Source of the DNA: Candidatus Sulfomarinibacteraceae bacterium
GTDB taxonomy: Bacteria > Acidobacteriota > Thermoanaerobaculia > Thermoanaerobaculales > Sulfomarinibacteraceae
Direction of reading: 5' to 3'
Assembly (NCBI GenBank): GCA_963796455.1
Contig: CAWCLO010000001.1
Location: 704,001 to 768,000 of the forward strand
Length of the DNA: 64,000 nt
Below, piece after piece: positions 18,497 to 58,113 of this stretch; the first letter of the stretch is position 1; the number at the start of each line of letters is the position of its first letter. The notes under the pieces were generated by a model. The model saw only the letters and a list, made by a program, of their open reading frames with translations. It was not told where the DNA came from and did no database searches. Made by a program: the position numbers and the translations under genes.

Positions 18497-18901
18497 ACCT
18501 GTTGCCCAAAACAGATCGTCAATTGAAGTTGCCCGCCTGACAACACGAGGTTTATAGGATTTCGGCATTTCCGGTTCGTGGTTGGCCCGCGTCCGCGCCC
18601 GTATTGCAGCGGCAGCGACAGGGACAGTCATCAGCGATCAGTGTTCAGAGGCAGAGATCAGGGGCAGTGACAGCGTGGTCACCTCCGGGTCATTCAACAG
18701 AAGGAACAGCCGTGGTGGTGGAGGCGTCTCGCCTGCACGCCGTGCGGCCGAGACGGCCGCATCACAAAGGACGGAGCCCCGAAGAAGTGACTACTGTTCG
18801 CTGTCCCGGCCGCTGAACACTGACGCTGACTACTGTTTGCCGTCGCTGAATTCTGTCGCTGTCCCTGCACGCTATCCGAGACTCTGTCTTGGACAAGAGC
18901 G
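18497..18901 (+). mobile_element. MITE-like element copy A (gene-less, central REP doublet)
   Basis: Degenerate left end ACCTGTTGCCCAAAACAGA; right end TCTGTCTTGGACAAGAGCG; colinear with copies B-E; flanks ATGCTGGAT / ATGCTCGAT. Confidence 0.85.
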
Positions 18902-18931: not shown

Positions 18932-19020
18932 CCATCTCACAACCGCAGATAGCGCAGATAAACGCAGATTGTCGGGCCTGAGAATATCTGCGTTCATCCG
19001 CGTGATCTGCGGTTTCTCCG
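18932..19020 (+). repeat. Gene-less 9-mer tandem-inverted element (CGCAGATnn type)
   Basis: AACCGCAGATAGCGCAGATAAACGCAGAT ... ATCTGCGTTCATCCGCGTGATCTGCGGTT; shares its ends with the copies at 47571 and 54046. Confidence 0.9.
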
Positions 19021-21335: not shown

Positions 21336-21815
21336 CACTCTTGTCCAAGACAGAGCCTCAGACGGATTTCAGGAACAGCGACAGGGACGGCAAGCAGGGA
21401 CAGTTGACAGTAGGCAGCGTCAGTGTTCAGTCATCAGCGACAGGAATCAGCGGCCGGGACAGTGGACAGTAGTCACTTCTTCGGGGCTCAGGCCTTTGTG
21501 GTGCGGCCGTCTCGGCCGCACGGTGTGCAGGCGAGACGCCTACACCACAACGGCCGTTCCTTCCGTTGAACGACCCGGAGGTGGCCACGCCGTCGCTGCA
21601 CCTGATCGCTGCTCACGGCCGCTGATCACTGATCACTGTCGCTGTCCCTGTTCGCTGTTACCTGTCACTGACGCTGGACACTGTCGCTGCCGCTGAAACT
21701 CGGGATCGGGAACGAGTACGTGCCAACCGCGAACCGGATATTCCAAGAACCAACCTGTAAACCACTTGTTGTCAGGTGAGTAACGTCACGTGACAATCTG
21801 TTTTGGACAGCGGTG
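21336..21815 (-). mobile_element. MITE-like element copy B (gene-less, central REP doublet)
   Basis: Ends CACTCTTGTCCAAGACAGAG and TCTGTTTTGGACAGCGGTG; direct repeat ATGCAGGAT on both sides. Confidence 0.9.
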
Positions 21816-24509: not shown

Positions 24510-26288
24510 GTGCATCGCGACATCATGCCGCCAGGCACGACCACCGATATCACGGCCGCTTCCGCGTTGGTCATCGCCCCCCATTTTGATGACGACGTGC
24601 TCGGCTGCGGTGGTTTGATTGCCAAGCTCGCGGCAGAAGGCGCCGCGATCTGCGTGCTCTTTCTGACCGATGGATCAGGGGGTGTCGAGGCGATCGACAA
24701 CCGCAAGGCCTATGCCGAGCGTCGACACGCCGAAGCGCGCGAGGGCCTGGAGATTCTCGGGGTCACGGACATCGAGTTCGCAGATCTCCTGGACGGCTCC
24801 TTGACTACCCACATCGATGAAGCGGCCGAGGCCATTCGAAAAACCCTGATCGACCGCCGGCCCGAGCTGCTGCTGACTATTTCACCGCTCGAGATCAGCC
24901 CCGATCACCGCGCCACTTTTGCCGCTGTTCACAAGGTCCTGTCGCCCCTCCGCGGAGGCACCGACCTCGATGAAGCCGTGGCGAACACCGAGATCCTGCT
25001 CTACGAGGCCAATCACCCCGCATTTCCCGACGTCCTGGTGGATGTCAGTGATCAGATCGATCTCATTCGCCAGGCGATCGAGGCCCACGAAAGCCAGCTC
25101 GAGCTCCACAACTATCGCGAAATGACCCTCGGGCTGCGCAGCTTGCGAACCGCATCCCTGGCCCCTGAGATCACGGCTGCCGAGGGCTTTCGCCGGCTGA
25201 CCCTGAACGACTTCGTCAGCAACAGCCGCGCGGGACTGATCCGGAGCCTGGGCGGCGTACCCGAACTCCATGAGATCCTCGACGGCCCGCGCATCAGCGT
25301 GGTTGTTCGAACAAAGGATCGTCCCGAGCTCTTGGCTCAGGCACTGGAAAGCCTCGCGCAGAGCACCTATCGAAGGGTCGAAGTGGTGCTGGTCAACGAT
25401 GGCGGCGATGACCCGACGCCGCCAAGAGATTTTCCTTTCAAAATCGTAGCGGTCAACCTCGCCGAGAATCGCGGCCGCGCCGCGGCTGCCAACGCAGGAA
25501 TCGCCGCCGCTACCGGGGAGTGGGTCGCGTTCCTCGACGACGACGACCTGGCCGAACCGGAGCACCTGGCGACCCTGGCCGGTCTCACCGTCGCTGCCGG
25601 CACCAAGGTCGTCTATACGGATGCGGCGGTCGGAGTTTATGAACTCGACCCCCAACAGGGCTGGCGCGAGGTCGATCGGCGGCTGCCATACAGTCGTGAT
25701 TTCGATCCCGATCTTCTGCTCTTCGACAACTACATCCCGTTCAATACCTTGTTGATCGAACGCGGAGTCCTGGAGGCCGCCGGACCGCTCGACACCGATC
25801 TGCCCTTCTTCGAGGACTGGGACCTTCTCATCCGACTGGCGGCCCTCACGCCCTTTCACCACCTGCCGGCCGTCACCGCCGAATATCGCCATTTCCGCGG
25901 CGGGAGCCACCATATTTTCGGCGAACGACCCGCCGAGCGCGCCGACTTTCTGACCATGAAGTCGAAGATCATTAACCGCTATGGTGACCGCCAGAGCCCG
26001 GATTCGATCGCCCGGGTGGTGGATCTGCTGCGAGGCGAAACGGTCTCAGCGCTGGAGGCGGTATCGGCACGTGCGGCCGAGACCGAAGAAATCCGTCATC
26101 AATTCGCTGCTGAACGCACCGGATTGCTCGGCCAGATCGAGCAACTCCGCGCGGCGGCCCAGGACCAGGACGAAAACGTCCAGAATCTCTTCCTCGAGAT
26201 TCAGCGGCTCAGCGCGCTGATCGAAGAGATGGAAGGCACCAAGGCATGGAAGCTCCACCGCACCGCTGAAAAGCTCCGCGGCCGGTAG
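24510..26288 (+). CDS. PIG-L deacetylase / GT2 glycosyltransferase fusion with C-terminal coiled coil
   Basis: APHFDDDVLGCGG and PDH motifs, then ISVVVRT, FLDDDD and EDWD motifs; start is uncertain. Confidence 0.85.
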   Translation: MHRDIMPPGTTTDITAASALVIAPHFDDDVLGCGGLIAKLAAEGAAICVLFLTDGSGGVEAIDNRKAYAERRHAEAREGLEILGVTDIEFADLLDGSLTTHIDEAAEAIRKTLIDRRPELLLTISPLEISPDHRATFAAVHKVLSPLRGGTDLDEAVANTEILLYEANHPAFPDVLVDVSDQIDLIRQAIEAHESQLELHNYREMTLGLRSLRTASLAPEITAAEGFRRLTLNDFVSNSRAGLIRSLGGVPELHEILDGPRISVVVRTKDRPELLAQALESLAQSTYRRVEVVLVNDGGDDPTPPRDFPFKIVAVNLAENRGRAAAANAGIAAATGEWVAFLDDDDLAEPEHLATLAGLTVAAGTKVVYTDAAVGVYELDPQQGWREVDRRLPYSRDFDPDLLLFDNYIPFNTLLIERGVLEAAGPLDTDLPFFEDWDLLIRLAALTPFHHLPAVTAEYRHFRGGSHHIFGERPAERADFLTMKSKIINRYGDRQSPDSIARVVDLLRGETVSALEAVSARAAETEEIRHQFAAERTGLLGQIEQLRAAAQDQDENVQNLFLEIQRLSALIEEMEGTKAWKLHRTAEKLRGR

Positions 26289-26539
26289 CACCGGCCACAC
26301 AGCAGATACTGGATGCTGGATCCTGGATCACTGCTGTCTAAAACAGATTGTCATGAAGTTACCCACCTGACAACACGTGGTTTACGGGTTGGTTTTTGGC
26401 ATATACGGTTCGCGGTTGGCACGTACCCGATCCCGATCCCGAATTGCAGCGGCAGCGACAGTGTCCAGCGACAGCGACAGGCAACAGCGATCAGGGTTCA
26501 GTGATCGGCGGCAGCGGTCAGGAGTACAGGCGACGAAGT

Positions 26540-26675
26540 GGCCACCACCGGGTCGTTCAACAGAATGGGCAGCCGGTGGGCGGCCGATGTCAAGGACAGG
26601 CAGGGTGCAGGGCATCCTTGACATCGGCCGCCACACCGGCTTGTGGCAAAGGGCATGAACGACCCGGAGGTGACC
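26540..26675 (+). promoter_or_regulatory. Long two-tier inverted repeat overlapping the four-helix-bundle start
   Basis: 26540-26559 pairs with 26656-26675 (18/20); 26571-26596 pairs with 26615-26641 (one bulge). Confidence 0.8.
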
Positions 26676-27029
26676 GTGTCCAACGCCGCCACGAACACCA
26701 ACCTCGTTGCCCACTCGAAAGCCCTCGAAGCAGCAGGAATCGCGATCAAACTCGTGATGAGGGTTCCAGCTCCGCTGAAGCCTATTGCCGATCAGGTCAT
26801 CCGGTCGGCAAGTTCGGTCCCTGCGAACCTGGCAGAAGGGCACGGCCGAGTTGGTAGAGACCGATTGAACCACTGGAGAATCGCCTACGCCTCGGCCAAA
26901 GAGGTCGACAGCCACTTGCAACTCCTCGCCCACGCCGGGGCGATCAGCCCGAACGCAGCCAGTGAAGTGATGAACGCCTTCGATCAAGTCCGTGCGATGA
27001 CGTGGCGGCTGCTGAACCCGAAGAAGTGA
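26655..27029 (+). CDS. Four-helix-bundle protein (23S rRNA IVS protein / Avd-like family)
   Basis: ADQVIRSASSVPANLAEGHGR ... IAYASAKEV signature; 124 aa. Confidence 0.92.
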   Translation: MNDPEVTVSNAATNTNLVAHSKALEAAGIAIKLVMRVPAPLKPIADQVIRSASSVPANLAEGHGRVGRDRLNHWRIAYASAKEVDSHLQLLAHAGAISPNAASEVMNAFDQVRAMTWRLLNPKK

Positions 27030-27202
27030 GTGCTGTTCGCTGTCACTGCCCCTGCCGCTGATCGCTGACGTCTGCCGCTGACCACTGTTCGCTGACGCTG
27101 TCCCTGATCGCTGTCCGCTGATCCCCGTCCCTGTCCCCGATCGCTGTCTGAGACTCTGTCTTGGACAAGAGTGATCGAGTATCCAGCATCGAGTATTCAA
27201 CG

Positions 27203-27234
27203 AAAAACCCCCGCTCAAACGAGCGGGGGCGTTT
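27203..27234. terminator. Intrinsic terminator hairpin
   Basis: AAAAA-CCCCCGCTC-AAAC-GAGCGGGGG-CGTTT between convergent genes. Confidence 0.8.
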
Positions 27235-27250
27235 CTGATTCCTAATTCAG

Positions 27251-29173
27251 CTAGGCACCGTACTGCTTGATCGCTGCATCCAGTCTGGGCAGCAGGACAT
27301 AGATGAATCCCGCCACGCCAAGGATCGCGACCGCGAGCACCACGAACATCATGGTCGAGGGCTCGAGACCGCTGATAAAGCCGGATAGCTTGTTGCCGAT
27401 CGATGTCGACAGGAACCACCCGCCCATCATCAGACCGACCAGCCGTTTGGGCGCCAGTTTGGTCACCAATGACAGACCCATCGGCGACAAACAGAGCTCG
27501 CCGACCGTGATCACCAGGTAATAGATCACCAGCCACATCATCGCCGTCTTGATGGCACCATCCTGTCCGACCCAGGCGCCAAACGCCATCACCAGGAGAG
27601 AAAGCGAAGTAATCACCATGCCGTAGAAGATCTTGCGCGCAGTCGAGATCGGCCGGCCGCGAGTGGCCAACCAGGCGAAGAACCACACGACGAGCGGCGT
27701 CATGGCGACAACAAAGACCGGGTTCAGCAGGGCAGTCAGCATCTCGGCATTGACCAGCTTGAGATAACCCCCCGGCGCGAGCTCCGGCGTATCAGAACCC
27801 GCTTTGGCAAAGACTGCGTCAAAGGTCGGTTGCGAAACCAGGAGAACCGGGACCGTCTTGCCATCAATCGTCCGACCGAGAAGCACCCGGCGAAGTTCTG
27901 CAGCATTCTCCGGGCTGACCTTGACGCTCGTGGTCGTCACTCCGTGGGAATCTTTGCCGGTGACGATCTGGACATTGTCATCGTTGAAGACGCCGCAGGC
28001 CAGAAATCTTTCGTCAGCCGCGAAGGCCGTGGGATCCATGACTTGGATGTCCAGACCCGGGTTGGCCTCGAATTCATCGACCAGGCTCTTGCTCAGAATC
28101 CTCGACCCGAACATTGCCTCAGCAGCTGAATCGACCAACCCAAGGGTCCGCGGGTCGGGTCGGGGATCGTTCGGGCCCGCATTCGAAAAGTAGGTTGGCA
28201 TCGCCTTTTGCGCATAGACATTGGCGGCATTGGGAATCCACTCGGCGCGGCGGTCGGTATCGTTCTCCGCAAAGACCGTCATCAAACCACCACTCAGGTG
28301 GAGGACCATGAAGAAGGTACCGCCGGCGATAAACACCGGGATGAGGGCCGCCAGGCCTGGTTTCTCTTCGGGCGACGCCTTCTTCACGAGAATCACAAAG
28401 TAGGCAGCGATCGGAAGCATGCCGACGAGGAAGGCAAAGGTCACAGGTCCAATGGTGTTGACGACAAACGGCAGATACTGGCCGACAAAATAGCCGCCGA
28501 TACCAAATACCGCTGCAGGCAGAAGGATCGTCATCACGATCTGCTTCATGCTGACATCATCCGGGCTCGGCGCCGTCCGCGGTGGATCGGCCGCCGCGAG
28601 GGCTTTCCATTGAACAGACAAGATCACAACTGAAACAAGCAAACCGACCCCGGCGGCGGTGAAGGCGAGATTGAAGCTCCACAAATTCCTCAGCGGCGCC
28701 GACAACAAGGCCGAGGCGGCGGCTCCGATGTTGATGCCCATATAAAAGATATTGAAACCGGCATCGCGCTTTGGATCGCCGGGCTCGTAGAGGTTTCCGA
28801 CCATTGCCGAGATATTCGGCTTGAAGAGGCCGTTCCCGAGGCACAGGAGAATCAGCCCACCGTAGAAGGTCGGCATGCTCCGGATCCCGAGGCCGAAATA
28901 GCCGAGGGCCATCAGGAGACCGCCGATGAACACCGACTTGCGGAAGCCGAGGTAGCGGTCGGCGATCATACCTCCGAGGAACGGAGTGAAGTACACGAAC
29001 GCCAGATAGGTGCCGTAGATTTCGCCGGCGGTGGCGTTGGAGAGGCCCAACCCGCCGCGCTCGGTGTCGATGATGTAGAGGTACAAGATACCGACCATCA
29101 GATAGAAGCCCAACCGCTCCCACATCTCGGTGAAGAACAGAGACTTCAGGCCTTTCGGGTGACCAGCCAACAT
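27251..29173 (-). CDS. POT/PTR-family peptide:H+ symporter (MFS) with a large loop insertion
   Basis: GHPKGL, EMWER, GNGLFKPNIS, FYMGINIG and GELCLSP motifs. Confidence 0.93.
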   Translation of the reverse strand: MLAGHPKGLKSLFFTEMWERLGFYLMVGILYLYIIDTERGGLGLSNATAGEIYGTYLAFVYFTPFLGGMIADRYLGFRKSVFIGGLLMALGYFGLGIRSMPTFYGGLILLCLGNGLFKPNISAMVGNLYEPGDPKRDAGFNIFYMGINIGAAASALLSAPLRNLWSFNLAFTAAGVGLLVSVVILSVQWKALAAADPPRTAPSPDDVSMKQIVMTILLPAAVFGIGGYFVGQYLPFVVNTIGPVTFAFLVGMLPIAAYFVILVKKASPEEKPGLAALIPVFIAGGTFFMVLHLSGGLMTVFAENDTDRRAEWIPNAANVYAQKAMPTYFSNAGPNDPRPDPRTLGLVDSAAEAMFGSRILSKSLVDEFEANPGLDIQVMDPTAFAADERFLACGVFNDDNVQIVTGKDSHGVTTTSVKVSPENAAELRRVLLGRTIDGKTVPVLLVSQPTFDAVFAKAGSDTPELAPGGYLKLVNAEMLTALLNPVFVVAMTPLVVWFFAWLATRGRPISTARKIFYGMVITSLSLLVMAFGAWVGQDGAIKTAMMWLVIYYLVITVGELCLSPMGLSLVTKLAPKRLVGLMMGGWFLSTSIGNKLSGFISGLEPSTMMFVVLAVAILGVAGFIYVLLPRLDAAIKQYGA

Positions 29174-43619: not shown

Positions 43620-44375
43620 ATGATCACGATTTCCGATCTGTGCTTCCGCTACCCCGAGGGTGAATTCGAACTCAACGTCCCTTCGCTGGAAATCCATGCC
43701 GGCGAGAAGGTCGCGGTGATCGGTCCATCCGGTTCGGGCAAGACCACCCTCCTCCACCTGATGGCAGGGGTCCGGCTGCCGCAGGAGGGTTCGGTGGTAA
43801 CCGATGAGGTCGAGGTCACCGCCCTTCCCGATGGTGAGCGGCGCGACTTCCGGATTCGGCGGATCGGGATGGTCTTCCAGGAGTTCGAGTTGCTCGAGTA
43901 TCTGACCGTGCTCGACAACATCATCCTCCCCTACCGGATCAACGGCTCGTTGAAGCTCGATCGCTCAGTGCGGGACCGGGCGGCGGCGCTTGCCGATCAG
44001 GTGGGGATCGCCGACAAGCTGAATCGGCTTTCGACCCGGTTGTCGCATGGCGAGAAGCAGCGGGTCGCGGTCTGCAGGGCTCTGGTCGCCGAACCGGTTC
44101 TTCTGCTTGCCGACGAACCCACCGGCAATCTCGATCCGACCAACACGACGAGGGTGCTCGACATCCTGCTCGACGCTGCCGAAGCCACCGGCGCGACCTT
44201 GGTAACGGTCACCCACGACCACGACCTCCTCCCCCGCTTCGACCGCAACCTCGACGTCATGGATCTCATAAGCGTTTCGGAGGAGTCGGACACCTACCCT
44301 TCACCGGCCGCACAAAACGCATATAGCCCGCAGATCACGCAGATTGACGCAGATAGAGGAAAGAAAAATGATTGA
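43620..44375 (+). CDS. ABC transporter ATP-binding protein (LolD-like)
   Basis: GPSGSGKT, LSHGEKQR, DEPTGNLD and VTHD motifs; the C-terminus runs through the downstream repeat. Confidence 0.93.
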   Translation: MITISDLCFRYPEGEFELNVPSLEIHAGEKVAVIGPSGSGKTTLLHLMAGVRLPQEGSVVTDEVEVTALPDGERRDFRIRRIGMVFQEFELLEYLTVLDNIILPYRINGSLKLDRSVRDRAAALADQVGIADKLNRLSTRLSHGEKQRVAVCRALVAEPVLLLADEPTGNLDPTNTTRVLDILLDAAEATGATLVTVTHDHDLLPRFDRNLDVMDLISVSEESDTYPSPAAQNAYSPQITQIDADRGKKND

Positions 44376-44794
44376 CGACTTTCCTCTCAAGGAAGAGACG
44401 TATCAGATTTTGGGCGCATGCTTCGAGGTTTATAACGAAATGGGTTGTGGGTTTCTTGAACCTGTATACCAAGAGTGTCTGGAAATCGAGTTGCGGACGC
44501 AGGGAATCCCTTTCGCCAGCCAGGTTGTTCTGGAGGTCGATACAAAGGTCGAACGCTGAACAAAAAGTACCAGCCCGATCTCATTTGTTTCGAATCCGTC
44601 ATTGTTGAATTGAAGTCCGTATCAGCTCTCGCTATGGAACATGAGGCCCAGCTCCTCAACTACATGAACGCAGGCTGTTTTGAGGTGGGTTTGCTCGTTA
44701 ATTTCGGTCACTACCCAAAGCTCGAGTACACCAGGCTCGTAAACCAAAATAAAAAACATCTGCGTCAATCTGCGTCATCTGCGGGCAATATGCG
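44318..44794 (+). mobile_element. GxxExxY cassette 1 bounded by a 37-bp inverted repeat of CGCAGATnA 9-mers
   Basis: 44318-44354 vs 44758-44794 are 35/37 complementary. Confidence 0.85.
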
Positions 44795-44798
44795 ATGA
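44368..44798 (+). pseudogene. GxxExxY protein (PD-(D/E)XK-like), 1-nt frameshift near 44540
   Basis: GCGFLEPVYQECL in one frame; YKG..PDLICFESVIVELK..AQLLNY..GLLVNFG in the next. Confidence 0.9.
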
Positions 44799-46077: not shown

Positions 46078-46535
46078 TTGAACCGCAAAGAACGCAAAGA
46101 CCGCGAAGAAGGTTTTTAAGGTTGGATATCGAAGACATTGGCGAGCGCGTCGTTGATTCGGCACTCAAAATTCATCGAGCTTTGGGACCCGGCCTTTTGG
46201 AGTCTGCCTACCAGAAGTGTCTTGAATACGAACTTCGAAAGGCCGGATTCCGGGTTCAGTGCGAGGTCGTAATACCCATCGACTACGAAGACATCAAGAT
46301 CGACGCAGGGTACCGAATAGACATGCTGGTTGAGGATTTGGTCCTGATCGAAAACAAAACTGTTGACCAACTCCTGGCAATCCACACGGCTCAAATATTG
46401 ACCTATCTCAAGATGAAAGACCTTCGGCTCGGCTTTCTGATCAACTGGAACGTCAAACTCATCAAAGATGGCATCCACAGGTTCGTCAATAACTTATGAA
46501 AAATCTTTGCGTTCTTTGCGTTCTTTGCGGTTCAA
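46078..46535 (+). mobile_element. GxxExxY cassette 2 bounded by a 32-bp inverted repeat of CGCAAAGAA 9-mers
   Basis: 46078-46109 vs 46504-46535 are 30/32 complementary. Confidence 0.85.
46122..46499 (+). CDS. GxxExxY protein (PD-(D/E)XK-like nuclease family)
   Basis: LGPGLLESAYQKCL, YRIDMLVEDLVLIENK, AQILTYLK and GFLINWNV motifs. Confidence 0.95.
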   Translation: MDIEDIGERVVDSALKIHRALGPGLLESAYQKCLEYELRKAGFRVQCEVVIPIDYEDIKIDAGYRIDMLVEDLVLIENKTVDQLLAIHTAQILTYLKMKDLRLGFLINWNVKLIKDGIHRFVNNL

Positions 46536-47570: not shown

Positions 47571-47658
47571 CCATCTCAAAACCGCAGATAGCGCAGAGGG
47601 ACGCTGATAATCAAGGGCCCGCTATCCGCGTTTATCCGCGTGATCTGCGGTTTCTCCG
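47571..47658 (+). repeat. Gene-less 9-mer tandem-inverted element (CGCAGAT type)
   Basis: CCATCTCAAAACCGCAGATAGCGCAGA ... ATCCGCGTGATCTGCGGTTTCTCCG; near-identical ends to 18932-19020. Confidence 0.9.
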
Positions 47659-50685: not shown

Positions 50686-51148
50686 CACTCTTTTCCAAGA
50701 CGGAGTCTCGGACAGATTTCAGGAACAGCGACAGGGACGGCAAGCAGGGACAGTAGTCAGCATCAGCGTTCAGTCATCGGCGTCAGCGATCAACGGCCGG
50801 GACAGCGAACAGCACTCACTTCATCGGGGCTCCGGCCTTTGTGGTGCGGCCGTCTCGGCCGCACAGTGTGCAGGCGAGACGCCTACACCACAACGGCCGT
50901 TCCTTCCGGTGAACGACCAGGAGGTTGCCACTTCGCCGCATGGACTCCTGACCGCTGCCGCTGAACACTGACCGCTGTCCCTGTTCGCTGTTGCCTGTCG
51001 CTGACGCTGGACACTGTCGCTGCCGCTGCAATTCGGGATCGGGAACGGGTACGTGCCAACCGCGAACCGGATATGCCAAAAACCAACCCGTAAACCGCGT
51101 GTTGTCAGGTGGGTAACTTCAGGTGACGATCTGTTTTGGACAGCAGTG
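50686..51148 (-). mobile_element. MITE-like element copy D (gene-less, central REP doublet)
   Basis: Ends CACTCTTTTCCAAGACGGAG and TCTGTTTTGGACAGCAGTG; closely colinear with copy B. Confidence 0.9.
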
Positions 51149-57610: not shown

Positions 57611-57670
57611 CGTCGCCGAAATGGCGTTTCCGCGTGTTTGGCGACGGATGCTGGATGCTGGATGCTGGAT

Positions 57671-58113
57671 CATACTTGTCCAAGACAGAGTCTCGGATAG
57701 CGTTCAGGAACAGGCCTGAAGGTGGGCCAAGGCCCACCTTCAGAGTTGTGTCCTACTCCCTGGATCACTCGGCCCAAGTGAGAAGTGCCGCACAGCGATC
57801 AGGGACAGCGCCGGGGACCGGCGGACAGCGTCAGCCAACAGGAGTCGGCGTCAGCGATCAGCGGCCGGGACAGTGAACAGTACCCTCCGGCCTTTTTGGT
57901 GCGGCCATCTCGGCCGCACGATGTGCAGGCGAGACGCCTACACCACCACGGGTGATCCTTCTGTTGAACGACCCGGAGGTGATCACGCCGTCACTGCACC
58001 TGATCGCTGACCCTGAACACTGATTGTGCCCCGCCGCTGTTCGCCGTCGCTGCCGCTGCCGCTGCAATTCGGACACGGACGCGGACGCGGGCACACCAAC
58101 TACCGCGAACCCG
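57671..58113 (-). mobile_element. MITE-like element copy E (one end truncated, extra REP-like insertion)
   Basis: Starts CATACTTGTCCAAGACAGAG after (GATGCTG)x3; has the central REP doublet; similarity fades into the end of the MscS gene. Confidence 0.8.

Follow-up and report, generated by a model that had tools for sequence, protein, structure and literature searches.

How does a gene for a four-helix-bundle protein of the kind found in 23S rRNA intervening sequences (IVSs) come to lie between two protein-coding genes, enclosed in one inverted repeat after another and with no transposase of its own? The question is raised by positions 26305-27197 of the stretch analysed here, a window of 64,000 nucleotides (C1:704001-768000) from the 5.02-Mb genome, in 10 contigs, of a Candidatus Sulfomarinibacteraceae bacterium. 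An original prediction, made from the letters alone, had seen a transposase-less cassette in this interval and had offered more than one account of it: a mobile insertion cassette moved in trans, a repeat-guided selfish element, and a transcript folding into an IVS-like stem. The first of these accounts is supported by defined ends, a 9-bp target duplication, 230 loci in the genome, empty sites in relatives, the lack of an internal transposase and an IS4-family element with matching ends in a genome of the same genus. We read 26329-27173 as a non-autonomous mobile insertion cassette on IS4-family ends, likely moved in trans, and put the probability of this reading at roughly 0.8.

The element proper is 845 bp long and ends exactly at CACTG (26329) and at the CAGTG-type AGAGTG (27173). 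On its left a PIG-L/GT2 (glycosyltransferase) gene of the plus strand stops at 26288, and on its right lies a POT/MFS transporter gene of the minus strand, whose 3' end is at 27251. Its left terminal inverted repeat, CACTGCTGTCTAAAACAGATTGTCA, spans 26329-26353 and its right one, ...TGAGACTCTGTCTTGGACAAGAGTG, spans 27149-27173, both described here on the plus strand. Pairing extends outward from these repeats into the flanks, so that 26306-26353 and 27149-27196 pair over 48 nt with 81% complementarity, and the consensus ends of the family differ at 3 of 19 positions, just as the 16/19 match claimed beforehand would have it. The only open reading frame (ORF) with a family match inside the 845 bp is a 117-aa PF05635 gene, and no transposase gene is present there. 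A metagenome contig (run X3, record 26) spans the left junction, 26235-26385, with 0 differences, and it may stem from the source sample and so does not count as independent support. Elsewhere in the sequencing runs no contig joins across the element, the best holders containing at most 0.38 of the sampled words on fragmentary contigs.

What fixes the ends is the behavior of the family. BLASTN of the element finds 230 family loci in the genome, the whole gene being present in 65 (PF05635 itself has 76 matches), and a 20-nt end motif occurs three times in the window and not once in 100 shuffles. When the 65 gene-bearing copies are aligned with their flanks, similarity stops at 5'-CACTGCTGTCCAAAACAG... 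on one side and at ...CTGTCTTGGACAAGAGTG-3' on the other. At this CACTG/CAGTG boundary lies a 9-bp target duplication. Of 80 paired copies, 21 have it without a mismatch and 40 at 8/9 or better, where a control with shuffled partners gives 2.9 and 9.0; among other duplication lengths from 4 to 12 bp, none exceeds two copies. Duplications are also found in targets that are not repetitive (TCTTTGCGT; GATAAAGAT/A; TGCCCAGGT/TGCTCAGGT), which means that the signal is no by-product of periodic arrays.

The duplicated 9-mers share the palindromic consensus ATSCWGSAT, and this 9-mer comes back with each GGATGCW unit of the heptamer arrays of the host. The element sits in heptamer arrays because its target recurs in each of their units, and this, together with the family-wide duplication boundary, makes the outer arrays host target DNA. 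They had been taken for the outermost layer of the element itself, an assignment that has to be given up for 26305-26328 (GATACTG GATGCTG GATCCTG GAT, whose last nine nucleotides, ATCCTGGAT, hold the position of the left target duplication) and for 27174-27197 (ATCGAGTAT CCAGCATC GAGTATT, inverted relative to the left flank). The label "repeat-guided" falls with it, the arrays being host DNA that contains the preferred 9-mer of the transposase. Across the genome, GGATNNN arrays abut an element end in 23 of 59 cases. Twenty-eight copies are anchored at both ends, and arrays are readable on both sides in 19; judged by eye on a printed alignment, they run in the same direction in 16 of these (one array being interrupted) and are inverted in 3, including the copy in the window. 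That heptamer arrays and the element seem linked can thus be put down in large part to the sequence preference of a transposon; the arms that belong to the cargo are another question, to which we return below.

Comparison with relatives gives the same answer from the outside. The two flanking genes are adjacent in many genomes of the genus, at about 70% nucleotide identity, and in three of these genomes (G021, G012 and G001) the same junction holds only an inverted pair of heptamer arrays, able to form a hairpin, plus a conserved terminator, which in the window is the bidirectional terminator hairpin at 27202-27235. Two more (G024 and G016) likewise lack the element at the orthologous junction. 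Had relatives always carried it, mobility would have been in doubt; these empty sites instead make the insertion specific to the lineage of the window. In G008 the junction is occupied by another member of this end family, one without a gene, which is lodged in the right arm of the heptamer hairpin and flanked by a perfect duplication, ATCCTGGAT. This gene-less element (L008, G008:C27) has the same IS4-type ends between the orthologous flanking genes, but its interior is not the same and centers on a GGTGGGCCAAGGCCCACC palindrome. The heptamer hairpin itself, between stop codon and terminator, is kept in three species with different units (GGATGTT in G021, L005; GGATCTT in G001, L013; GGATWCA in G012, L016): its structure persists and its sequence turns over.

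These same sites bear on another explanation, in which the family would be a domesticated host 3'-end element, akin to repetitive extragenic palindromes (REPs) and their mosaics (BIMEs), that is retained for its effect on mRNA stability or on termination and that owes its spread to recombination, not transposition. None of the 80 paired copies lies within a called gene, all being intergenic at a median of about 100 nt from neighboring genes, and hairpins already stand next to terminators at the empty sites, much as such a role would predict. Recombination of this kind does not account for defined ends with duplications in non-repeat DNA too, for an insertion sequence that has the same ends, or for the differences among species in presence and absence at orthologous sites, and we find the idea scarcely credible.

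If the cassette is moved in trans, where might the transposase come from? A candidate partner is present in another genome of the same genus, G017, as an intact 1411-bp element (L020 1016-2426) that encodes a 402-aa transposase. The protein scores 251.4 bits against NF033592, "IS4 family transposase" (cut-off 115), matches PF01609 (DDE_Tnp_1) at 1.3e-25, and matches DUF4372 too. The right inverted repeat (IRR) of this insertion sequence is the counterpart of the cassette's left end, with 17 of 18 nt identical, and its left inverted repeat (IRL) is the counterpart of the cassette's right end, with 20 of 25 nt identical. Resemblance, if weak, continues inward: the subterminal 80 nt of cassette and insertion sequence align with a score of 6, against -11.8 +/- 4.5 for shuffles with a maximum of 3 in 500. 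Among more distant relatives in other phyla, all four clear-ended copies that were read have CACTG termini and a perfect 9-bp duplication; their transposases are 67% (L056) or 41-42% (L069, L071 and L087) identical. For the subgroup IS4Sa, Table 1 of PMC2266710 gives ends of the form CA------T (the CA...T9 pattern), a duplication of 8-10 bp and a size of 1150-1750 bp. With ends CACTGCTGT, a size of 1411 bp and a duplication of 9 bp read from the distant relatives, the L020 element agrees with IS4Sa in all of these respects. Mobilization of the cassette in trans by an IS4-family transposase is likely: the enzyme, supplied from elsewhere, would cut at the CACTG termini and paste the element into a 9-bp staggered target.

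The family also includes copies that lack the gene altogether. Paired copies fall into two size classes, of about 300-580 bp and 780-895 bp, and 47 of them, of 303-684 bp, are gene-less; short, non-coding and numerous, with the inverted ends and the duplication of the parent, they qualify as MITEs, miniature transposable elements bounded by inverted repeats. The four gene-less relatives reported earlier in the 64 kb are all real. One, of 405 bp on the plus strand (18497-18901), has the target duplication ATGCTGGAT/ATGCTCGAT at 8/9; the other three lie on the minus strand, namely a 480-bp copy (21336-21815) with the perfect duplication ATGCAGGAT, a 463-bp copy (50686-51148) whose flanks match at 6/9, and a copy at about 57648-58072, one end of which is degenerate and which has additional sequence inserted close to its right end. 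They share with the gene-bearing element the conserved left subterminal region (26354-26445, plus strand; 97% identity to 50979-51121), which is also the part that weakly resembles the subterminal region of the insertion sequence. One internal junction is common to all four. In the copies at 18497-18901, 21336-21815 and 50686-51148 a different 65-nt hairpin (GGCGTCTCGCC...GGCCGAGACGGCC) replaces the upstream hairpin and the ORF, of which the last 13 nt are kept. Since the replaced interior is common to gene-less copies, they are not simple deletions, and the gene-less form has itself been propagated. The extra insert in the fourth copy (about 57640-58090) is the same GGTGGGCCAAGGCCCACC palindrome that forms the core of the gene-less element in G008.

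We turn to what the cassette carries. The four-helix-bundle, IVS-type ORF claimed for it is real: the protein scores 55.9 bits against PF05635 (cut-off 33.8; 5.5e-15) and 59.5 bits against TIGR02436 (cut-off 24; 3.2e-16). Its length needs amending from the 124 aa first given, because the likely start is GTG at 26676, 5 nt after GGAGG, where 56 of the 58 intact copies have ATG; the gene then occupies 26676-27029 on the plus strand and encodes 117 aa plus stop, with other in-frame starts at ATG 26655 (124 aa) and GTG 26643 (128 aa). Intact 117-aa frames are found in 58 of 65 copies, which are on average 89% identical, and their differences from the cargo consensus number 945, 277 and 223 at codon positions 3, 1 and 2. 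In pairwise comparisons, the only measure of selection used here, pN/pS is 0.19 over all pairs and again 0.19 in nine reciprocal nearest pairs (pS 0.14). The cargo gene is under purifying selection in the 58 copies, and since the ratio holds in nearest pairs too, selection has been at work in the lineages from which today's copies descend. An AlphaFold model of the protein has four helices at a pLDDT of 93.8; its best structural matches are 2GSC and 2RLD (TM about 0.82, with chains A-E of each among the matches), then the Avd structure 4DWL (TM 0.76). We predict a nucleic-acid-binding oligomer of the Avd/S23p kind that would act on its own hairpin or arms. Contigs from the RNA library X20 that fall on the ORF are 90-95% alike and so represent other copies or relatives, and with DNA possible in that library they are no evidence of transcription.

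The gene is set between two further layers of repeat. Arrays of CAGCGA-type units on the left (about 26447-26521) do face TCGCTG-type arrays on the right (about 27037-27148), as had been predicted, and we delimit the inner arms as 26446-26524, made of tandem 6-7-nt CAGCGAN-type units whose number varies among copies, and 27030-27148, made of tandem NTCGCTG-type units complementary to them (both on the plus strand); over 22 copies, 1456 of 1831 aligned arm columns are Watson-Crick pairs. Between the left arm and the gene, on the same strand, lies a conserved compound hairpin (26538-26678) in which a perfect 18-bp hairpin (26579-26596 with 26615-26632) is nested inside a 20-bp hairpin (26540-26559 with 26656-26675). 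The outer helix buries GGAGG (26666-26670), the ribosome-binding site (RBS), and in the structure shared by the family its pairing takes in the start codon's first two bases. Among copies the 163-nt leader has 93.8% identity, a higher conservation than that of synonymous sites (pS 0.28). Over 27 sequences from the genus its structure comprises 49 pairs, with 95% of cells paired and compensatory change in 17 of the 49; none of 500 shuffles scores as high, and slid controls give 2-7 pairs.

Such an architecture invites the view that the element works at the level of RNA, as an IVS does: the arms would form a long stem, RNase III would excise the loop with the ORF, and the whole layout would serve processing rather than transposition. 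Several observations agree with it. The RNA of the whole element folds at -383 kcal/mol, far better than shuffles (-329 +/- 7 kcal/mol, z = -7.4), and the hairpin is kept by compensatory change. An S23p-bearing IVS of Coxiella is excised by RNase III (PMC4990558). But a stem in RNA should tolerate G:U, and G:U-type mismatches do not exceed A:C-type ones either in the arms (79 v 82) or in the hairpin (20 v 25), equal counts that give no pointer to sense RNA rather than a DNA palindrome. Nor is there copy-specific co-evolution of the arms: a left arm and the right arm of the same copy pair no more stably (-112.4 kcal/mol) than arms taken from different copies (-110.9 kcal/mol), and 256 of 2000 permutations are as low. 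The gene is co-oriented with its upstream neighbor in 14 of 29 gene-bearing copies, that is, at random, which means that read-through transcription cannot be the general route. The only 23S rRNA gene of the genome, 3011 nt against a 2925-position model, has no ORF-sized insert, and the element lies in intergenic DNA between protein-coding genes. A search of Rfam returned generic hairpins only, in sub-threshold matches to miRNA models, and no family. An IVS-like stem in the transcript is thermodynamically possible, as had been proposed, and nothing tested favors it over a palindrome in DNA. Because processing of RNA would also leave the 9-bp duplications, the empty sites and the 230 loci unexplained, we regard it as a very improbable account of the element; it may yet describe how the cargo acts after insertion.

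The hairpin and arms have a history beyond this genome. We define as the module the CAGCGA/TCGCTG arms with the hairpin and the four-helix-bundle gene, and we located 28 such modules in relatives. In two, both from G006, an IS4-type core stands on either side, five have GGYTCATCCGGAA ends on both sides and five on one side, and 16 have neither end type at the thresholds used (three loci being cut short). The GGYTCATCCGGAA ends belong to a second vehicle. In G017 a 1303-bp element of the ISL3 family (L125 948-2250, G017:C613; PF01610 at 2.6e-69) has GGCTCATCCGG ends, and ISL3-type ends lie inside GAACGTT arrays with an 8-bp NAACGTTN duplication; derivatives with these ends and no transposase carry the same four-helix-bundle module (L095, L102, L104, L114 and L120). 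IS4-type and ISL3-type ends are almost mutually exclusive among genomes: G000, G006 and G021 have 161, 77 and 68 ends of the IS4 type and 0 of the ISL3 type, and G020, G017 and G008 have 44, 38 and 34 of the ISL3 type. Within the genome of the window a search for ISL3-type ends gave 0 matches. The cargo module is older than its vehicle, other genomes of the genus carrying it between ISL3-type ends or between no recognizable ends. The array-armed module would then be the basic unit, and we infer that insertion sequences with a preference for arrays captured it, flanked by its own arrays, at least twice.

Array-armed units with other contents occur in the window as well. Two more inverted-tandem-array cassettes, at 44318-44794 and 46078-46535 (GCAGAT-type and GCAAAGAAC-type units), hold a different small gene, which at 46122-46499 encodes a GxxExxY protein (TIGR04256, 133 bits) and at 44344-44798 looks split into two overlapping frames; with GxxExxY beside the four-helix-bundle gene, cassettes with array arms thus carry two or more kinds of cargo here. 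We take the frames around these two cassettes to be ABC-transporter genes from a reading of their translations, with no family search. Inverted pairs of GCAGAT-type arrays of about 90 nt are also found with no gene between them, at 18932-19020 and at 47571-47658, the former directly beside the gene-less copy at 18497-18901.

Might the module then move by itself? One could suppose that arms, hairpin and gene move together by some mechanism of their own, entering, say, at the apex of array hairpins or of other long inverted repeats, and that the IS4-type ends are a secondary ride. This would explain why the 16 modules with neither end type are multi-copy in their genomes all the same, why one module is found in two unrelated vehicles, and why dozens of copies stay under purifying selection. 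It would also suit four other, divergent four-helix-bundle genes of the genome, each of which lies directly after a stop codon in inverted tandem arrays of its own and without insertion-sequence ends. The original prediction had expected other genes of this kind to share both features with the cassette: the bracketing by inverted tandem arrays holds for all four, and none has these ends. Yet every boundary that can be defined in the genome of the window is an IS4-type end with a 9-bp duplication; gene-less derivatives retain those ends and spread as well; for the "naked" module no boundary, duplication or empty site has been defined, and some copies with neither end type may have decayed or unrecognized ends. 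Capture by array-targeting insertion sequences suffices as an explanation, and independent movement of the module seems to us unlikely. A broader version is also doubtful, though we state it for what it would imply: the module might be a mobile or self-perpetuating unit without a known recombinase, its protein might recognize hairpins made of short tandem arrays, and array-targeting elements of the IS4 and ISL3 types might repeatedly have picked it up. If that were true, the "IVS protein" family and the heptamer arrays that many bacterial genomes contain without explanation would be the two parts of a single system.

We return to the IS4-type cassette as our preferred explanation, against which a number of observations have to be set. 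First, the partner is elusive. No such transposase is encoded in the assembly of the window's genome (tblastn, E<=1e-3; the genome is 90.5% complete), and no pair of ends within 6 kb was found to enclose one. A transposase bounded by the same repeats, which one would look for on the prediction of a cassette moved in trans, was thus not found in this genome among ten end pairs 1-6 kb apart, of which the four shortest (2.0-2.2 kb) were inspected. Between these four lie what appear from reading their translations to be ordinary genes, one a hydrolase, no family search having been made on them. The sole PF01609 match of the genome, at the end of contig C7, is unrelated and has no end motif within six mismatches; beside it is a frame that we take, from its translation and with no family search, to be an IS110-type transposase. 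Second, the partner is rare in the genus: matching ends on both sides are found in only one of 20 PF01609 loci from 25 genomes (L020), and in one draw of ten genomes only one has a match to the L020 transposase. The L020 copy lacks matching 9-bp flanks, and its genome, G017, holds only one IS4-type end, L020's own, its sampled four-helix-bundle modules lying between ISL3-type ends. Third, in the window's own copy the first nine bases of the right flank match the last nine of the left at only 6/9, and nearest copies differ by a pS of 0.14, so most insertions are not recent. Fourth, with 16 of 28 modules in relatives lacking recognized ends, the vehicle does not explain the spread of the module everywhere. 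As to the cargo, a promoter scan of 26250-27300 returned 0 sites, none in the left subterminal region, and a route to its expression is conjectural: translation might be gated by the opening or cleavage of the hairpin that buries the ribosome-binding site, and the protein may act on its own hairpin or arms.

What the locus offers, then, is a well-defined mobile insertion cassette of IS4 descent whose cargo is an interesting unknown. How genes for IVS proteins spread has been an open question since the first rRNA intervening sequences were described, and the S23p/23S rRNA IVS protein/Avd-like family is very large and, to our knowledge, has no known function outside diversity-generating retroelements (DGRs). 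Here a concrete route at the level of DNA is at hand: ends of the IS4 type, target duplication over 9 bp, a defined target sequence and a transposase that is a candidate for the partner. Nor is the cargo junk: purifying selection maintains 58 paralogues in a single genome, with a hairpin in front that conceals the ribosome-binding site. That the same cargo rides on two unrelated vehicles in one genus suggests either repeated capture or a property of the cargo that favors capture. We found no description of such a cassette in the literature on 23S rRNA-IVS/PF05635/S23/TIGR02436 four-helix-bundle proteins, and PMC10910872 does no more than name "23S rRNA IVP" with other CRISPR-linked domains in the legend of a figure.

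Among known systems, mobile insertion cassettes (MICs) such as MIC231 of Bacillus cereus, with its IS231/IS4-family ends, are like the element in having IS4-family ends, no internal transposase, a passenger gene, a duplication of the length typical of the parent family, presumed mobilization in trans and gene-less, MITE-like derivatives. Several features set it apart. Its passenger, an S23p/Avd-type four-helix-bundle gene, brings along inverted tandem arms of its own and a hairpin in which the ribosome-binding site is buried; a single 5-Mb genome holds 230 loci; insertion is into a palindromic 9-mer that forms part of the host's heptamer arrays; sister species have this same cargo on ISL3-type ends; and the partner transposase is not in the same assembly. 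MICs are mentioned once in PMC2266710.

The cargo also points to intervening sequences with an ORF, of which the 23S rRNA of Leptospira provides a further example. Like the 23S rRNA IVS of Coxiella burnetii with its S23p (PMC4990558), the element has an ORF of the PF05635/TIGR02436 family between complementary flanks, in a class of sequences long suspected of being selfish or horizontally moved; unlike it, the element is not in rRNA but between glycosyltransferase and transporter genes, and its mobility has a DNA-level explanation in its insertion-sequence ends. Whereas the abstract of that paper describes the Coxiella ORF as subject to reductive evolution with no synthesis in vivo, the ORF here is under purifying selection. 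With the Avd proteins of DGRs (PDB 4DWL; 8UB7) the cargo model shares the four-helix-bundle fold at a TM of 0.76-0.79, but identity is only 7-11% and no pair of template and variable repeats is present; membership in a DGR can be rejected, with 0 matches in the genome to the reverse transcriptase PF00078. Finally, the heptameric repeat pairs that Rehm et al. (2015, PMC4692102) describe from Xanthomonas and Nostoc are intergenic 7-nt tandem arrays of unknown function, often in convergent inverted pairs capable of forming stem-loops, and the arrays here resemble them in being intergenic, built of 7-nt tandem units and able to form stem-loops. The paper has 0 occurrences of the terms S23p, four-helix-bundle or IVS proteins, and the arrays described here differ from the Xanthomonas and Nostoc pairs in being the target of an insertion and, in another type of unit, the arms of its cargo.

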